DNA from: a virus
IMG/VR virus record: IMGVR_UViG_3300032770_000007
Location: 1-64,000 of that record
Strand: one strand, 5' to 3'
Length of the DNA stretch: 64,000 nt
Within the stretch, counting starts at the first letter, position 1, and each line of letters starts with the position of its first letter. The notes beneath the pieces are model-generated. The model was given only the letters and a program-made list of their open reading frames with translations. It did no database searches and had not been told where the DNA came from. Both the position numbers and the translations under genes were made by a program. Positions 17,429-49,256 of the stretch are shown one piece after another.

Positions 17429-17669
17429 TTCCACCATCTTTTCTTTATTGGACGAGGAGTATATGTACCCAAATTCACTATACACATCATCCTACAAAAG
17501 GGACAACGAAGAGTCACGTAATCAGGCACAGTTCTAGTAGCATTATGAAACTTGCCTTCAGTTCCATGAAAAGTAAACTCAGTAGCACAACAACGGCATT
17601 TACCACGATATTCGTGTTCCCAGGGCAACTTACCTTGTGTGATGATTTTCAAAAGAACTCCATAATAAA

Positions 17670-17920
17670 AGGTGGCGTATGAGTAACAGAGAACACCACC
17701 AGAAACTCTGGATTCAGCTTTAGGCTGCTAGTGCCATTTCTGGCAAATCGAATGCATCATCGTCGTTTGCATTTAACGTTTTGTGCTGCTTAGGGCAGTC
17801 ACCTGTCCGGTAGCCATTGATTTATTCCGCGCCCAATCGAAACCTGGTCATCCCCATATGGTGGAGATGTGGGGAATCGAACCCCAGTCTTGAACGATTT
17901 TAGTCAACAGTTATACTACC
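17670..17920 (-). ncRNA. ssrA: Two-piece (circularly permuted) tmRNA; tag ANDDDAFDLPEMALAA
   Basis: Acceptor piece (TGGGG-TTCGATT-CCCCA, CATCTCC-ACCA ending 17859) precedes the coding piece starting GGGGATG at 17855; G3:U70; tag at 17770-17720; outer ends approximate. Confidence 0.9.
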
Positions 17921-17951
17921 ATCAGAACTATTTAGTTTACTACAAATATCC

Positions 17952-18317: not shown

Positions 18318-19022
18318 TCATAATGTTAGTAACTTATGCTTCATCAAATCACCACGTTCTCTAGCTGGAATAGGCATTGTGGCTACAGCCGTGACCTGAT
18401 TACCTATATCTGGTTCTAAAAATGACCAATACTTCAAACCACGATAATCCAAATCACCTTTCACAGCATTCAAAGCACTATCATCCCTCACGCCAATCAC
18501 CGTGAAATATAAACCATCAGGAGTAACATTCTTCAACTGCACCACATCATCCTTCTGAATGGTAGCTAGTTGATAGCCTGCTTTCAGAGCCACATGCGCC
18601 GCCTGAACTAACTGATAGGCTGGTGGGAGATCCTGTCTAACAAAAATATAAACATAATGTCTCTTGTAGTATTCCTCTACATCAAAATAACTATACACCA
18701 ACCAATGTACCAGTTCTTTGTATATACTTTGATACTTCTCATCCAATGCCTTGAATGGTGCATCAAGGATAGTGTTGAGTACACTAGTATTACAAATAGC
18801 AATGACCAAAGCACCAAAAGGTTTCAATCCATTATCTAACTTGATTTGTCGTTTGATGGGAGTAAATGCTTTTGCCAGGTACTGAACGATAATCTTCTTT
18901 GATTTCTCAATATCTCCATCAGTTGTTTCTAATGCTCTAAGAATAGCATACTGCACGACATGATGGGACTGGATCTGTTTTGTATTGGCCAGATGACGCC
19001 AAAGTTTTCTATAGTCTAACAT
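18318..19022 (-). CDS. Protein with C-terminal peptidyl-tRNA hydrolase 2 (Pth2)-like domain
   Basis: YVYIFVRQDL...QLVQAAHVA...FLEPDIGNQVTAVA; SD AGAGGA before ATG 19022 (ORF-track start 19115 is probably too long). Confidence 0.75.
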   Translation of the reverse strand: MLDYRKLWRHLANTKQIQSHHVVQYAILRALETTDGDIEKSKKIIVQYLAKAFTPIKRQIKLDNGLKPFGALVIAICNTSVLNTILDAPFKALDEKYQSIYKELVHWLVYSYFDVEEYYKRHYVYIFVRQDLPPAYQLVQAAHVALKAGYQLATIQKDDVVQLKNVTPDGLYFTVIGVRDDSALNAVKGDLDYRGLKYWSFLEPDIGNQVTAVATMPIPARERGDLMKHKLLTL

Positions 19023-19035
19023 TTTAGTTCCTCTT

Positions 19036-19137
19036 CTATATTTTGCTTGAAATACCTTCTGCAACATATGAAGAGGATGGAGGACCACGCGCATCATAAC
19101 AAACCTACGTATCAAGAACCTATAGACACAAACTCAT
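19036..19137 (-). promoter_or_regulatory. Leader peptide with two internal TAG codons and RGPP motif overlapping an RBS-sequestering hairpin
   Basis: GGAG-N6-ATG; MSLCL*VLDT*VCYDARGPPSSSYVAEGISSKI*; TCCTCTTC (19077-19070) pairs with GAAGAGGA (19036-19029). Confidence 0.7.
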
Positions 19138-19138
19138 T

Positions 19139-19666
19139 TTATTCTCCAGAATGACTATCATTATTTATATCCTTGTTGGGTAATAGTTCATGAGGATTAA
19201 CTCTTGGTTCTGCAAGAAACTGTTCTTGCGGTACTGATGAATGACCACCATTACCACCATTCAATAATTGACCATGACCAAACTTTCCAAATGTAGGAAT
19301 GCCTTGTTGTCTGGCTGCTTTGGCATCATCCAGTTCTTTGGCTAGTTCTGAAGAAAATGGGACAGAATAAAGTCTTGTTGATTTATCAGAACCTTTACCA
19401 GAAGACTTCATCCACATTTCAATATGCTTTCCTTGACCTTTTATATCAGATATCACGGCATGATCCAAATACTCTACTCTATCCTTGGGCCAATGAGGAT
19501 AGGCTCTACCCATGAGATCAGGGATAGAAAAAGACAAATACAATGCCAATATCAAAGTAAGAGGTATCATGAACCATTTGAGCCAATAACTAACAGGTGT
19601 TCTGATTACGAGATAACCAGCAAACAAAGCAAAACTAGTCAAAAGGATTAGAATAGTATAAATCAT
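19139..19666 (-). CDS. Membrane protein, third gene of a MotA/TolQ-type cassette
   Basis: Two N-terminal TM segments, RLYSVPFS.EL. Confidence 0.6.
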   Translation of the reverse strand: MIYTILILLTSFALFAGYLVIRTPVSYWLKWFMIPLTLILALYLSFSIPDLMGRAYPHWPKDRVEYLDHAVISDIKGQGKHIEMWMKSSGKGSDKSTRLYSVPFSSELAKELDDAKAARQQGIPTFGKFGHGQLLNGGNGGHSSVPQEQFLAEPRVNPHELLPNKDINNDSHSGE

Positions 19667-19667
19667 A

Positions 19668-20318
19668 TCAGAAATCTGTTGTTTGACCTGGTGGTGGTGA
19701 ACTATCTATGAATACAAATGGGTGAAAGTCTGTAGTAATGTTATCAATAGAGCCATCTGGTTCTATATCAAACTGAAAAGCAGTTGCTTCATTATTTGGT
19801 TCATTCAAGGTAACTACTCTGCTATAAACTGGTCTATAGTTAGGATCCAAATCGGTTAGTTGGACAGTAACTGGTACCGGATTCCTATCAACCTCATTAG
19901 TCAGAGTATCAGAATGCCTAGCATAAAACTCTACATTGACCACATATCTACCTGGTCTGCGTTGTCTTATTGAAACAACTTCCTGATTGATATAAAGCAC
20001 TCGAGGATTGCCATCAACCATGACGACATCATTTTGCTGTCCCAGATCATCATGGTCTAGAAATACATATCCATTTTCTCTTTTTCTATAACCTATAGCA
20101 TCATGCTCTGGAGTTAAAATCCATAGGTCTATATCATGAGCAGAGTGATCAGGCCAAGACATTATAACCTGTATTTCTGCTTTTGGATCTACTTTATGTT
20201 GATCTTTCTTGGTATTGATTAGAAGAAAACTCATAATAAACAAAACAAAAACAGCTGCTAGCATGGCAAACAGCATGTCAACATAACTCAATAATACAGA
20301 ATACTTTCCATTATTCAT
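19668..20318 (-). CDS. MotB/ExbD-like single-TM protein
   Basis: SYVDMLF TM helix with conserved Asp, then W.D.S.HDIDLW, LD.DDLG, PG.YVVNV domain. Confidence 0.6.
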   Translation of the reverse strand: MNNGKYSVLLSYVDMLFAMLAAVFVLFIMSFLLINTKKDQHKVDPKAEIQVIMSWPDHSAHDIDLWILTPEHDAIGYRKRENGYVFLDHDDLGQQNDVVMVDGNPRVLYINQEVVSIRQRRPGRYVVNVEFYARHSDTLTNEVDRNPVPVTVQLTDLDPNYRPVYSRVVTLNEPNNEATAFQFDIEPDGSIDNITTDFHPFVFIDSSPPPGQTTDF

Positions 20319-20796
20319 TATGTTCTAGGCCATGTTCTAGATTAACTAATTGCAACTTTGTTAATGTTGCTAGACCTATTCCAACCAATGTTGTTACAAT
20401 GCTGGTAGAAAATCCTTTGGTTAACTGAACTACAACAGTCTTAACAGTATCGACGTTCGTAGTATCAATGTGAGACATATTCTCAGAAAATATTAGCATG
20501 AAGCCTACCAGAGTTCCCATCATACCAATGGCCATCATACTATCTGCTGCAAACCAACAAGGTTTCAAGTGAACGAGATACCAAGGACGTTTTTCGACCA
20601 ATAGTTTATAATGAAGCCAACCTATAAAACTCGATACACCAATAAACAATCCTAGGTTAACCAAAGTTAATCTAGAATGATCTACTGTAAGCAAATATGG
20701 AAACAATAATCCGGTAAACTGAAGTAATAAGAACATAATAGCAATAGCATGAACTATTACATACCATCGCAACAGTGCTATTTTTTGAGTTGTCAT
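20311..20796 (-). CDS. MotA/TolQ/ExbB proton-channel family protein
   Basis: IGMMGTLVGF and G.STSIVTTLVGI motifs. Confidence 0.75.
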   Translation of the reverse strand: MTTQKIALLRWYVIVHAIAIMFLLLQFTGLLFPYLLTVDHSRLTLVNLGLFIGVSSFIGWLHYKLLVEKRPWYLVHLKPCWFAADSMMAIGMMGTLVGFMLIFSENMSHIDTTNVDTVKTVVVQLTKGFSTSIVTTLVGIGLATLTKLQLVNLEHGLEHNE

Positions 20797-21320
20797 TAAT
20801 GAAATCTCCAGCCTACCAAAATCACGTCTCGACCATAGTTAGGCAACTTTGAACCAGCATCAGAGAAATGAGTATATGTAAGAGTTATTGGCCATTTTCT
20901 AAATCTATAATCAATCTGAAGGTTGGCATTAATATTTCCGCCATTATAAGGTAGATAGTTGGTCATGTAGGCAATACCTATTCCTACATCAACAGGACCA
21001 AAACCATCACAAAACAAACCACGAAAAACTAAATTATTGTTATAATCTAATCCTTTGAATGTGCTTTCACCAATAGCTGTCATGCCAAACTGCCAGAAAG
21101 AATGAGGGACAATATTAGAAGGTTCCATAAATTGCAAATCTAGGACCTCTGTTGGTCCTCTGACTGCGGCGCCACCCAAAGAAAACTGTGCATATGGAAC
21201 ATCAAAAGGACTGGCAGCATGGCATTTATGAAGTGCCAAACCGGCCACAATGAGACCAATGAATACTAAAACTGCTATGGTGCCACTTAGACTAAGATTG
21301 AAAGGAAACTGTATTTTCAT
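20796..21320 (-). CDS. PagL-like lipid A deacylase / outer-membrane beta-barrel
   Basis: Signal peptide; C-terminal YTHFSDAG...PNYGRD.....WRF resembles the PagL H-x-S catalytic region. Confidence 0.6.
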   Translation of the reverse strand: MKIQFPFNLSLSGTIAVLVFIGLIVAGLALHKCHAASPFDVPYAQFSLGGAAVRGPTEVLDLQFMEPSNIVPHSFWQFGMTAIGESTFKGLDYNNNLVFRGLFCDGFGPVDVGIGIAYMTNYLPYNGGNINANLQIDYRFRKWPITLTYTHFSDAGSKLPNYGRDVILVGWRFH

Positions 21321-21552
21321 TCAAATAGTCTCCAAATAATATTACCTATTCCCAATCCAAGCAATGAAGAAAAACAGAATAGACTTATAACAAATGGACC
21401 ATAATACCAAGCATTAGGATTAGGATTGATTACGTGATATAATCCAAACATTGACCAACACCAAACTATGCAACCAGAAAATACCGCAAAAAGAAACTGA
21501 AGAAAATCTTTGAAATGTTTTTGCATTTGATCCTCCAATATATTTAGGATAG

Positions 21553-21624
21553 CGCGCGAGGCGGGATTTGAACCCGCAACCGTGATGTTTAGAGCACCCC
21601 GCTCTGACGTTGAGCTACACGCGC
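21553..21624 (-). tRNA. Amber suppressor tRNA (anticodon CTA), CCA not encoded
   Basis: Cloverleaf: GCTC/GAGC D-stem, loop CT-CTA-AA, GCGGG-TTCAAAT-CCCGC T-arm. Confidence 0.85.
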
Positions 21625-21625
21625 A

Positions 21626-22198
21626 TTATTCACCATACAGAAGCATAATAATATCAAAAGCCGCATCATGAACAGGATCATGCTTTATGACCTGATATTC
21701 ATCAAACTCAGGAATAACACAATAACCTCTGGCTGCTGTTTCTTTTGTCAAGGCCAGAGCTGTTCTGAAATCCATCCAATCCCAATAGTTACAAAGTAAA
21801 GGAATATTAAACTGACGACAAAGATTATCAATAATCATTTGATCCAAAGAACCTCTTTGCCAAAAGGTCTTATGACCATTACAATATTGAGTTAGTTGTT
21901 CTAAACCAGTTCTAACTGGCAAATCTGTATCTGTTCTACGAAGGCTTCTCTTGATAGGAATCTCTGCCTGCTTTTTCCACCACTCCAAGGCATCCTTCTC
22001 TACCTTTCTACCAACAGTAACCTGATTATCAGTATTGAATTTTACAAAACAAGAGTTGGTAAGATACTTCTGATATTTTTCATTGACTGTCAAATCAGCA
22101 TCACGTTCTTTATCAGACAAATCAAATGCTATAGCACCAACACTTAGCACCACAGCATTACTTTCTAATCCAAGAGTTTCAACATCAAAACTAATCAT
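21626..22198 (-). CDS. dexA: DEDDh 3'-5' exonuclease (DexA-like)
   Basis: FDVETLG, WQRGSLD, DFRT, HDPVHDAAFD. Confidence 0.8.
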   Translation of the reverse strand: MISFDVETLGLESNAVVLSVGAIAFDLSDKERDADLTVNEKYQKYLTNSCFVKFNTDNQVTVGRKVEKDALEWWKKQAEIPIKRSLRRTDTDLPVRTGLEQLTQYCNGHKTFWQRGSLDQMIIDNLCRQFNIPLLCNYWDWMDFRTALALTKETAARGYCVIPEFDEYQVIKHDPVHDAAFDIIMLLYGE

Positions 22199-48986: not shown

Positions 48987-49256
48987 TCACTTTATTTCCT
49001 TCATTTGTTTAGCAATATCAGCATAGGCTACAGGCATTCTTGGAATGGTATAACCTTCTGTTTCAATCCAAAGTTTGGCACCACAAGAAAGAGGATTGTC
49101 TGGTTGATAGACCAAAGAACAAGGACCAACCATGTCTATGGCCATGCAATAGATTACTTCCTTCGTTTCTGTATCTTCTATACGGATAGGAGGAAGCTTG
49201 TTACCATATTTCTTGTTATGACGGATGACCTGTTGATTAACGTGTATTCTTTTCAT
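48987..49256 (-). CDS. Conserved T4-like phage hypothetical protein
   Basis: MKRIHVNQ..IR.N.K, GP..LVY.PD.PLSCGA..WIET. Confidence 0.65.
   Translation of the reverse strand: MKRIHVNQQVIRHNKKYGNKLPPIRIEDTETKEVIYCMAIDMVGPCSLVYQPDNPLSCGAKLWIETEGYTIPRMPVAYADIAKQMKEIK

Follow-up and report, generated by a model that had tools for sequence, protein, structure and literature searches.

Here, we describe a 116-nucleotide (nt) spacer in a stretch of viral DNA which probably works as a translational switch keyed to UAG readthrough. The stretch (hereafter the window) comprises the first 64 kb of the 125,827-base virus record IMGVR_UViG_3300032770_000007 (~69% complete), and all elements of the finding are on its minus strand. 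The spacer precedes a gene for a 234-amino-acid (aa) Pth2-like protein and contains a small leader open reading frame (ORF) which is interrupted by two in-frame TAG codons, reaches a candidate ribosome arrest motif, Arg-Gly-Pro-Pro (RGPP), and runs directly into a hairpin that covers the Shine-Dalgarno (SD) sequence of the Pth2-like gene. A tRNA gene with anticodon CUA, of the amber suppressor type, is present upstream. The recurrence of this set of elements 5' of homologous genes indicates that it is more than a product of chance.

Anatomy of the leader and its conservation in homologous loci

The leader ORF (19036-19137), read directly from the window and conserved in homologous loci, is composed of ATG (19137-19135), four sense codons, TAG, four sense codons, TAG, five sense codons, RGPP, 13 sense codons and a final TAG. 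It reads MSLCL-TAG(19122-19120)-VLDT-TAG(19107-19105)-VCYDA-RGPP(19089-19078)-SSSYVAEGISSKI-TAG(19038-19036), and the frame after the second TAG up to the final one encodes VCYDARGPPSSSYVAEGISSKI. The first in-frame UAG (19120-19122), in the context CTA-TAG-GTT, aligns with the first TAG of related double-TAG leaders, and the second (19105-19107), in the context GAT-ACG-TAG-GTT ('DT-TAG'), is located five codons 5' of RGPP. The SD sequence of the leader, GGAG (19144-19147), was also read directly 6 nt 5' of the ATG, inside the 3' end of the preceding 175-aa gene. Thus, the GGAG, the ATG at 19137 and both internal TAG-GTT stops which a preliminary description of the window had reported are all in place. 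The RGPP codons CGT GGT CCT CCA (19078-19089) form the presumed arrest site, with CCT 19083-19081 assigned to the P site and CCA 19080-19078 to the A site. RGPP was found only once in the six-frame translation of the 125.8-kb record, namely in the leader. We also looked for a hydrophobic or signal segment in the part of the leader before RGPP (MSLCL-x-VLDT-x-VCYDA) and found none.

An alignment-based scan of viral contigs, unlike a scan with the single protein, which returned no relative, identified 80 loci carrying the Pth2-like gene (labelled here with L-numbers, such as L002 and L012), 19 of them with full-length matches. For the statistics we counted 17 distinct full-length starts, leaving out the duplicates L004, L007 and L011, and asked for an in-frame CCN-CCN no more than 12 codons past a TAG, inside the 150 nt 5' of the start. 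This arrangement was present at 16 of the 17 starts (the sole exception being L020) compared with 5 of the 341 starts of other ORFs in this DNA (Fisher p 1.4e-22), and the same test with TAA or TGA instead of TAG gave 0 of 17 in each case.

Leaders with two TAGs were found in L006 (MIDDYEGL-TAG-ILPDI-TAG-VYYEIRGPP), L008/L009 (..I-TAG-KIPDT-TAG-NLHYARGPP), L012 (MKQEFEI-TAG-VPDT-TAG-NFCYARGPP) and L014 (..EGL-TAG-KPDT-TAG-HFCYARGPP), as well as in L003, where two TAGs precede RARGPP. The leader of L002 reads MKEDYEGL-TAG-IPDTYVHYVARGPPFP, that of L005 MGSNH-TAG-EIHYEIRGPP and that of L010 ..ML-TAG-NYIRGPP, and L015-L019 have a shorter form (M-R-TAG-x-K-P-P-stop and similar). Spacing is also well kept: a gap of five codons from the second TAG to xGPP was observed in 8 of 11 aligned leaders (L002, one of the eight, has TAT at the position of that TAG), and in the 11 RGPP-type leaders 62-70 nt separate the Arg-position codon from the main ATG. 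A search of viral contigs with the IUPAC pattern 'DT-TAG, five codons, RGPP' returned five stretches, all on contigs already found via the protein, so that no independent loci were added.

The variation within the leader frame is that of a coding sequence. Among the 11 aligned leaders, the Arg position is CGT in six, CGA in three and AGA in one, plus one TGT (Cys); Gly is GGT in eight, GGA in two and GGG in one; the first Pro is CCT in six, CCG in four and CCA in one; and the second Pro is CCC in four, CCT in four and CCA in three. The variation of the RGPP codons is therefore almost purely synonymous, including the change from CGN to AGA. In 8 sequences, a stretch of 14 codons that includes the second TAG had a mean column entropy in the leader frame of 0.54, 0.48 and 0.99 for the first, second and third codon positions, respectively. 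Taken together, the synonymous variation and the third-position entropy across the TAG indicate that the leader frame is translated through the stop codon.

A separate observation concerns the codons before the gating TAG. (Pro)-Asp-Thr (GAC-ACN-TAG) is common at this place, both in leaders and in directly gated genes (see below), across distant relatives; the Asp-Thr-TAG context was seen in the window (19105-19113, Leu-Asp-Thr) and in L008, L012, L014, L024, L027, L031, L051 and L063. This context may tune the competition between release factor 1 (RF1) and the tRNA.

A hairpin over the SD sequence adjoins the Pro-Pro codons

The hairpin of the window (19029-19077; 5' arm 19077-19061, 3' arm 19046-19029), predicted by folding and by the duplex test described below, begins at the first base past the A-site Pro codon, and its 3' arm holds both the main SD and the third TAG of the leader. 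TCCTCTTC (19077-19070) is exactly complementary to GAAGAGGA (19036-19029), and the stem continues inward with ATAT/ATAT and then TTGC/GCAA; this 8-nt pairing with its inward extension had been noticed previously and was confirmed base for base. The SD AAGAGGA of the Pth2-like gene (19029-19035), located 6 nt 5' of the ATG at 19022, is fully paired. The 55-nt hairpin has a folding energy of -18 kcal/mol (z -5.03, none of 200 shuffles as good) and is also present in the fold of the 141-nt spacer region.

Minimum free energy folds of all 16 leader loci (16/16) pair the SD of the gene with a stretch that begins at or just past the second Pro codon, and the stem sequences differ among loci. A MAFFT alignment from RGPP to the ATG left the stems out of register and was not used for RNAalifold or for counts of base pairs. 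Instead, we applied an alignment-free duplex test, in which the 22 nt from the second Pro codon of each locus were paired with its own SD region or with those of the other loci. The mean duplex energy was -11.84 kcal/mol for self pairs versus -6.50 kcal/mol for cross-locus pairs, and none of 20,000 permutations was as low. The self duplex of the window (-19.8 kcal/mol) ranked first of 17; with the fixed windows used, the self duplex was not ranked first in L010, L012, L014, L024 and L025. In silico, the stall site is placed such that an arrested ribosome would disrupt the stem-loop that hides the SD. The comparative signs that the preliminary description had proposed to look for in homologous leaders, i.e., an in-frame TAG, RGPP or at least Pro-Pro, and an anti-SD hairpin right behind the Pro-Pro, are all kept (TAG..PP in 16 of 17 starts).

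The position of the leader's own stop codon bears on an alternative in which no durable arrest is involved. Ribosomes that have passed the UAGs could simply translate through the hairpin and open the SD in transit, or reinitiate at the main gene, with Pro-Pro causing a brief pause at most. The window itself would allow this, as the leader frame runs 13 codons beyond RGPP into the 3' arm and, if the last leader TAG were read through too, would end at TAA 19026-19024, one base short of the main ATG. In L014 the leader stop overlaps the ATG, and in L012 (2917-3003) and L096 the leader and the main gene share one frame, uninterrupted by a stop, which implies that readthrough in these two loci would also yield an N-terminally extended fusion protein. 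On the other hand, in L002, L008, L010 and L015-L019 the leader stop is reached within the 5' arm or ahead of it, a long way from the main ATG. Over all loci it is located from 0 to at least 18 codons past the Pro-Pro, so that coupling in transit cannot be the shared principle. What is kept instead is the xGPP or PP motif and its place at the foot of the 5' arm. The fixed position of the Pro-Pro and the variable position of the stop imply that it is the halt of a ribosome on Pro-Pro that has been conserved, and not termination beside the main ATG. Moreover, RGPP is the strongest arrest core known: it gave the most robust arrest among RAPP-like motifs, tolerated varied N-terminal contexts and resisted elongation factor P, as reported in PMC12992588. 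We therefore regard coupling without arrest as an unlikely explanation, albeit the best of the alternatives considered here.

The gating stop codon follows the anticodon of the neighboring tRNA

The tRNA gene with anticodon CUA (21552-21624, minus strand) is located 2.4 kb upstream of the leader in the same orientation, which confirms the CTA tRNA previously placed at 21553. It was found by ARAGORN and matched the Rfam tRNA family with 53.9 bits (threshold 29). It forms a cloverleaf, and its similarity to the other 27 tRNAs of the phage is low. The anticodon loop has 7 nt (CT-CTA-AA); four-base decoding, which we had considered for the window, was dropped as this loop is of normal size.

A tRNA(cta) was detected in 57 of the 80 IMG/VR loci, where it accounts for 57 of the 171 tRNAs detected, and in 16 of the 19 full-length loci it lies upstream on the same strand. 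The co-occurrence of such leaders with CTA tRNAs, proposed in the preliminary description, was thus observed. In a second, metagenomic collection, 43 of 68 tRNAs were cta. As a side observation, tRNA-like genes with 8-nt or odd anticodon loops (ccta, ttta, aaac, aata; ARAGORN) were present near the Pth2-like gene in L064/L066 (1892-1968), L078 (3360-3510), L031 and L048.

Some homologues consist of only the Pth2-like domain, and most of these appear to be gated directly. In 53 distinct domain-only loci we scored the stop before the conserved Y-x-Y-x-F-V-R-x-D-L block. The nearest in-frame stop was mostly TAG, 2-10 codons 5' of the block; the gating stop is directly preceded by ATG-x, and often no in-frame start follows. 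With fixed criteria, loci with tRNA(cta) had TAG in 28 cases and were unclear in seven, and the two loci with tRNA(tca) both had TGA; where no suppressor tRNA was seen, the stop was TAG in six, TGA in one, TAA in one and unclear in six, and the two loci with an odd anticodon were unclear. Among the loci scored as unclear, L024 and L025 have RGPP or CGPP leaders. The association of cta with TAG (28) and of tca with TGA (2), without a cross case, was significant (Fisher p 0.0023). The metagenomic collection provided 59 new distinct domain-anchored loci, in which the nearest stop was TAG in 47, TGA in three and TAA in nine; cta occurred with TAG in 22, tca with TGA in one and cta with TAA in three.

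The same feature is present in cultured phages. A TAG was found at codon 2-4 of the Pth2-like frame in all seven that were inspected (7/7), i.e., Salmonella phage Arash (ML-TAG), Acinetobacter phage ME3 (MT-TAG), Mycobacterium phage ScoobyDoobyDoo (V-TAG), Xanthomonas phage XacN1 (MK-TAG), RAS14 (MK-TAG), Ralstonia phage RsoM2USA (ML-TAG) and Pectobacterium phage CBB (MAQ-TAG). In XacN1 the homologue is ORF364, with ATG-AAG-TAG preceding it in frame; XacN1 and RAS14 have an in-frame ATG or annotated start a few codons past the TAG. Public annotation breaks at the gate: the frame is split or truncated in Arash (L082) and CBB (L088) and left unannotated in RsoM2USA (L087). In addition, a tRNA of Arash annotated as Phe (record 49176-49247) has the anticodon CTA according to ARAGORN.

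These data bear on a second alternative, in which the leader senses the failure of RF1: the UAGs would be passed whenever RF1 is depleted, inhibited or outcompeted, independent of tRNA(CUA), and the leader would report termination stress. Such a design senses the ratio of readthrough to termination and is blind to its cause; furthermore, no tRNA(cta) was seen in the available DNA of L002, L004/L005 and several short contigs, and a transfer-messenger RNA (tmRNA) gene is a neighbor of the window gene. Nevertheless, tRNA(cta) lies beside the gene in most loci (57 of 80), and in both sets the stop that gates the gene corresponds to the anticodon: TAG accompanies cta and TGA accompanies tca, and none of the 53 loci scored over the two sets together is a cross case. 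UGA is not a codon that RF1 recognizes, which excludes RF1 sensing in the TGA-gated relatives. The correspondence of stop codon and anticodon thus favors the tRNA over RF1 failure as the trigger, and we consider an RF1 sensor very unlikely. From the co-occurrence and this correspondence we infer that the UAGs are probably suppressed by tRNA(CUA).

It is scarcely credible that there is no readthrough at all, with MSLCL as an ordinary five-codon upstream ORF (uORF) and the conserved part as an RNA element (an SD-covering hairpin, or a site bound by a protein or an RNA) opened by another factor. In favor of this reading, such a hairpin suffices for trans-acting regulation and CCTCC is complementary to SD sequences; Rfam listed only the tmRNA and the tRNA, and no family over the leader region. 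Against it, the synonymous change at all four RGPP codons and the twofold third-position entropy across the TAG indicate translation, the motif has a TAG before it at 16 of 17 starts and a TAA or TGA at none, and the domain-only relatives carry TAG inside a conserved frame, often with no later in-frame start.

Proposed mechanism of the switch

The mechanism that we favor would proceed as follows. Initiation at ATG 19137 would probably be coupled to the end of translation of the upstream gene, and the ribosomes would usually terminate at UAG 19122 or 19107. Termination at either codon would leave them at least 28 nt short of the anti-SD arm, so that the hairpin would stay closed over AAGAGGA and the Pth2-like gene would be off. 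If tRNA(CUA) outcompetes RF1 at both UAGs, the ribosome would get to Arg-Gly-Pro-Pro and arrest with CCT 19083-19081 in the P site, with its footprint over the anti-SD arm that starts at 19077. The size of the ribosome footprint would place this arm inside the mRNA channel. The SD and the ATG at 19022 would then be freed and the 234-aa Pth2-fold protein would be made. With two UAGs in series, a steep, threshold-like response would be expected. The assignment of the P and A sites is based on the RAP/P stall state, as given in PMC10951233, and both the arrest at RGPP and the opening of the SD are proposed by analogy with known arrest leaders. All comparative tests put forward in the preliminary description were favorable, and its interpretation is supported at the level of sequence.

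Several observations weigh against this mechanism. Some of them concern the leader and the arrest itself. Only 15 coded residues (17 when a residue is counted for each UAG) precede RGPP in the window, and arrest in so short a nascent chain is assumed by analogy. The Arg is not universal, being replaced in CGPP (L025), HGPP (L096), PGPP (L097) and Arg-Asp-PP (L100/L103, with the leader M-M-TAG-IKIRDPP), and L015-L019 have only xPP followed by an immediate stop, which would amount to another type of pause. The pair of TAGs is not found throughout either: L002 has TAT at the second position, and L005 and L010 have one TAG. L020 lacks a leader despite a tRNA(cta) 230 nt upstream, and the full-length homologue L095 has neither a leader nor a tRNA within 1.5 kb. 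The latter gene (1300-1510) directly follows an exonuclease gene whose C-terminus resembles that of the window gene at 21626-22198, an ungated arrangement.

Other points concern the RNA. CCNCC is itself anti-SD-like, and part of the conservation of the Pro-Pro codons could therefore be at the RNA level. The fold of the whole 141-nt region is weak, with a z of only -1.5. In 8 of 17 leader loci (the window not being one of them), the hairpin loop contains sigma-70-like hexamers, which might give ungated transcripts without the anti-SD arm. The loci with such hexamer pairs are L005, L010, L013, L014, L015, L016, L018 and L019, with a spacing of mostly 17 nt (e.g., TTGACT-17-TATAAT in L010).

A third group concerns the tRNA and the gating stop. 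The tRNA(CUA) of the window (21546-21624) ends with G-CTA and does not encode CCA, so that it needs CCA addition, and its acceptor stem has a T.T mismatch at 6:67; it could be impaired. CCA is encoded by 14 of 15 aligned tRNA(CTA) relatives (identity to related loci 44-70%), including that of L012, which has an acceptor stem identical to the one in the window; the discriminator base varies among these tRNAs. In the metagenomic set, TAA is the nearest stop in 9 of 59 loci, several of which then have an ordinary ATG and are apparently ungated. Finally, the opal match (TGA with tca) rests on three loci.

The Pth2-like gene and its product

A search of 5.8 billion proteins returned 57 with E <= 0.001, including the product of the window gene itself. 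The gene (18318-19022, minus strand) starts at ATG 19022 as judged from the alignment of homologues, 18 of 27 of which begin exactly there with M-x-D/N-x-x-x-x-W; the start at 19022 in the preliminary description is thereby borne out. The upstream start at 19115, which that description had named as the case that would speak against it, is contradicted by these homologue starts and by the leader-frame wobble; the latter fits the leader frame and not the Pth2 frame, and hence argues against starts at both 19115 and 19097. A public database gives the window gene as 259 aa from ATG 19097, inside the leader; this call, like two comparably extended ones in relatives, passes through the leader in a different frame.

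At the sequence level, the 234-aa protein matched no Pfam family (PF01981 included) with E up to 0.1, and a sequence-profile search of the PDB gave weak unrelated matches only. The only family-profile match was phrog_1866 (function unknown; E 1.1e-6). The AlphaFold2 model has a predicted local distance difference test (pLDDT) score of 93.0, and in Foldseek residues ~121-234 matched the Pth2 structures 1q7s (human Bit1), 1wn2, 2zv3, 3erj and 1xty with a template modeling (TM) score normalized to the target of 0.70-0.77, probability 1.00 and E 1.7e-5 to 7.5e-4. The model thus gives the C-terminal domain (121-234) the Pth2 alpha/beta fold. The name Pth2 used previously therefore stands for the fold and did not find support from sequence profiles. 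Columns invariant in the phage family are R129, D131, Q137, Q140, H143, E203, P204, D205 and T211. The N-terminal domain (1-120) is helical in the model (pLDDT 85.6 when modelled alone). Its best VIA-align hits (Z 6.0) were generic helical bundles, perhaps a common arrangement only, and the ESM Atlas contained no usable match to it. As for its purpose, we suggest, with little confidence, that the amount of enzyme made would scale with UAG readthrough and that its substrate would be either peptidyl-tRNA left after readthrough-induced stalls, tmRNA being a neighbor, or the suppressor tRNA itself.

Genomic context

The virus uses the standard code. ORFs of at least 80 codons (stop-to-stop, code 11) fill 0.83-1.00 of each 10-kb bin, with 0.64 in the tRNA island, and TAG terminates 21 of the 140 crude ORFs with 100 aa or more; there is no recoding to code 15. 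We scanned the whole 125.8-kb record for other genes with an early stop (SD-ATG, 1-8 codons, stop, then at least 70 open codons) and obtained one with TAG, two with TAA and two with TGA, which corresponds to background and reveals no further TAG-gated gene. The leader is the only evident client of tRNA(CUA) in 125.8 kb.

The upstream 175-aa gene stops at TAA 19141-19139, just before the leader ATG, and the leader is probably coupled translationally to this last gene before it (TAA-A-ATG). Among the genes between the tRNA and the leader (19139-21320, minus strand), Pfam gave weak hits to PagL lipid A deacylase (E 4.5e-5) and to MotA/ExbB (E 6e-4, a hit that falls short of the curated cut-off). 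No minus-strand promoter or terminator was predicted at 19139-19022, and an internal promoter or intrinsic terminator in the spacer of the window was dropped as a candidate. A blastn search with the 1.7-kb region gave no match to cultured phages.

Downstream of the Pth2-like gene and separated from it by two small genes is a permuted (two-piece) tmRNA gene (17629-17951, minus strand; ARAGORN; Rfam tmRNA_permuted 142 bits, beta_tmRNA 104 bits). A permuted tmRNA was also present near the Pth2-like gene in L004/L005, L010/L011, L014, L021/L022, L024 and L025. This proximity in the window and in several other loci points to a recurring module of tRNA(CUA), gated Pth2-like gene and tmRNA. A more speculative reading, possible but doubtful in our opinion, is that four components, namely the tRNA(CUA), the RGPP leader with its two UAGs, the enzyme with the Pth2 fold and the tmRNA, work together as a self-contained homeostat of UAG readthrough. 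The leader would read the ratio of suppressor to RF1 with a squared response, and the enzyme would act on the suppressor tRNA (in its peptidyl or aminoacyl form) or on the stalled peptidyl-tRNA of the leader, closing a negative feedback. This loop would be comparable to the autoregulation of prfB, with a tRNA, an arrest peptide and a hydrolase as its parts. Such a homeostat would explain the absence of any other client gene for the tRNA in the genome.

Comparison with known systems

If the proposed switch operates, it would be an arrest-peptide leader with a new input, stop-codon decoding. Arrest peptides of the RAPP/RGPP type have until now been linked to protein export and a small number of other functions, to which the decoding of a stop codon would be added. 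The switch would also be a natural counterpart of hand-built amber-suppression gates, with a two-codon threshold. It offers a concrete target for the orphan suppressor tRNAs of standard-code phages and would explain the annotation errors in RsoM2USA, CBB and Arash as well as the start at 19097 in the window. Furthermore, a phage that keeps a UAG-reading tRNA and one UAG-dependent gene could represent an early stage towards stop-codon recoding. In the full-text literature searched (supplements and subscription journals being outside its scope), we found no stop-codon-gated arrest leader and no amber-gated phage Pth2 gene.

In SecM and MifM, ribosome stalling opens a stem-loop in which the SD of the following gene is masked. 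The leader described here resembles the RAPP/RGPP arrest leaders (ApdA, ApdP and ApcA, SecM with RAGP, and the RAPP/RGPP uORFs of Streptomyces) in that an R-[AG]-P-P core is present in a small uORF and a hairpin follows right after the A-site codon, features that in our case are known from sequence. The known leaders monitor protein export or insertion via a signal or membrane segment, and pulling force frees the stall, whereas this leader is without such a segment. Its regulated input would be arrival at the motif, set by the two UAGs, and its downstream product is a Pth2-fold protein, not a localization factor. The report on RAPP-like motifs mentions neither 'phage' nor 'stop codon' (PMC12992588).

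Homologues of the enzyme fold and orphan CUA tRNAs have been described in large phages. PTH2 was noted across jumbo phages and proposed to act in ribosome rescue (PMC7824862), and the word 'suppressor' is absent from that article. The window protein has the same fold in its C-terminal domain and an extra 120-residue helical domain. No target was found for the two CUA tRNAs of XacN1, as stated by the authors (PMC5852040). Phages with code 15 have their own suppressor tRNA and read TAG as a residue, as described in PMC13037316. The virus analysed here is similar to them in having a phage tRNA(CUA) and TAGs inside frames. Unlike them, it is not recoded, and its in-frame TAGs were found only in one regulatory leader.

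An early in-frame stop is also used outside of arrest leaders. In prfB, which encodes release factor 2, an early in-frame UGA gauges termination against alternative decoding. The arrangement is alike in that an early in-frame stop in the mRNA of a translation factor weighs termination against another decoding event. However, prfB depends on a +1 frameshift and senses its own product, whereas here a separate tRNA would suppress the stop, the signal would pass via the arrest motif and the hairpin, and the product has a hydrolase fold.

The preliminary description had claimed that no system combining readthrough and stalling has been described. This was too broad, as mammalian AMD1 combines both with another output: ribosomes that read through its stop codon stall at a defined downstream site, according to PMC13025110. 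The eukaryotic AMD1 has no dedicated suppressor tRNA and no SD hairpin, and its stall limits the expression of the same gene, whereas the stall proposed here would switch on the gene downstream.

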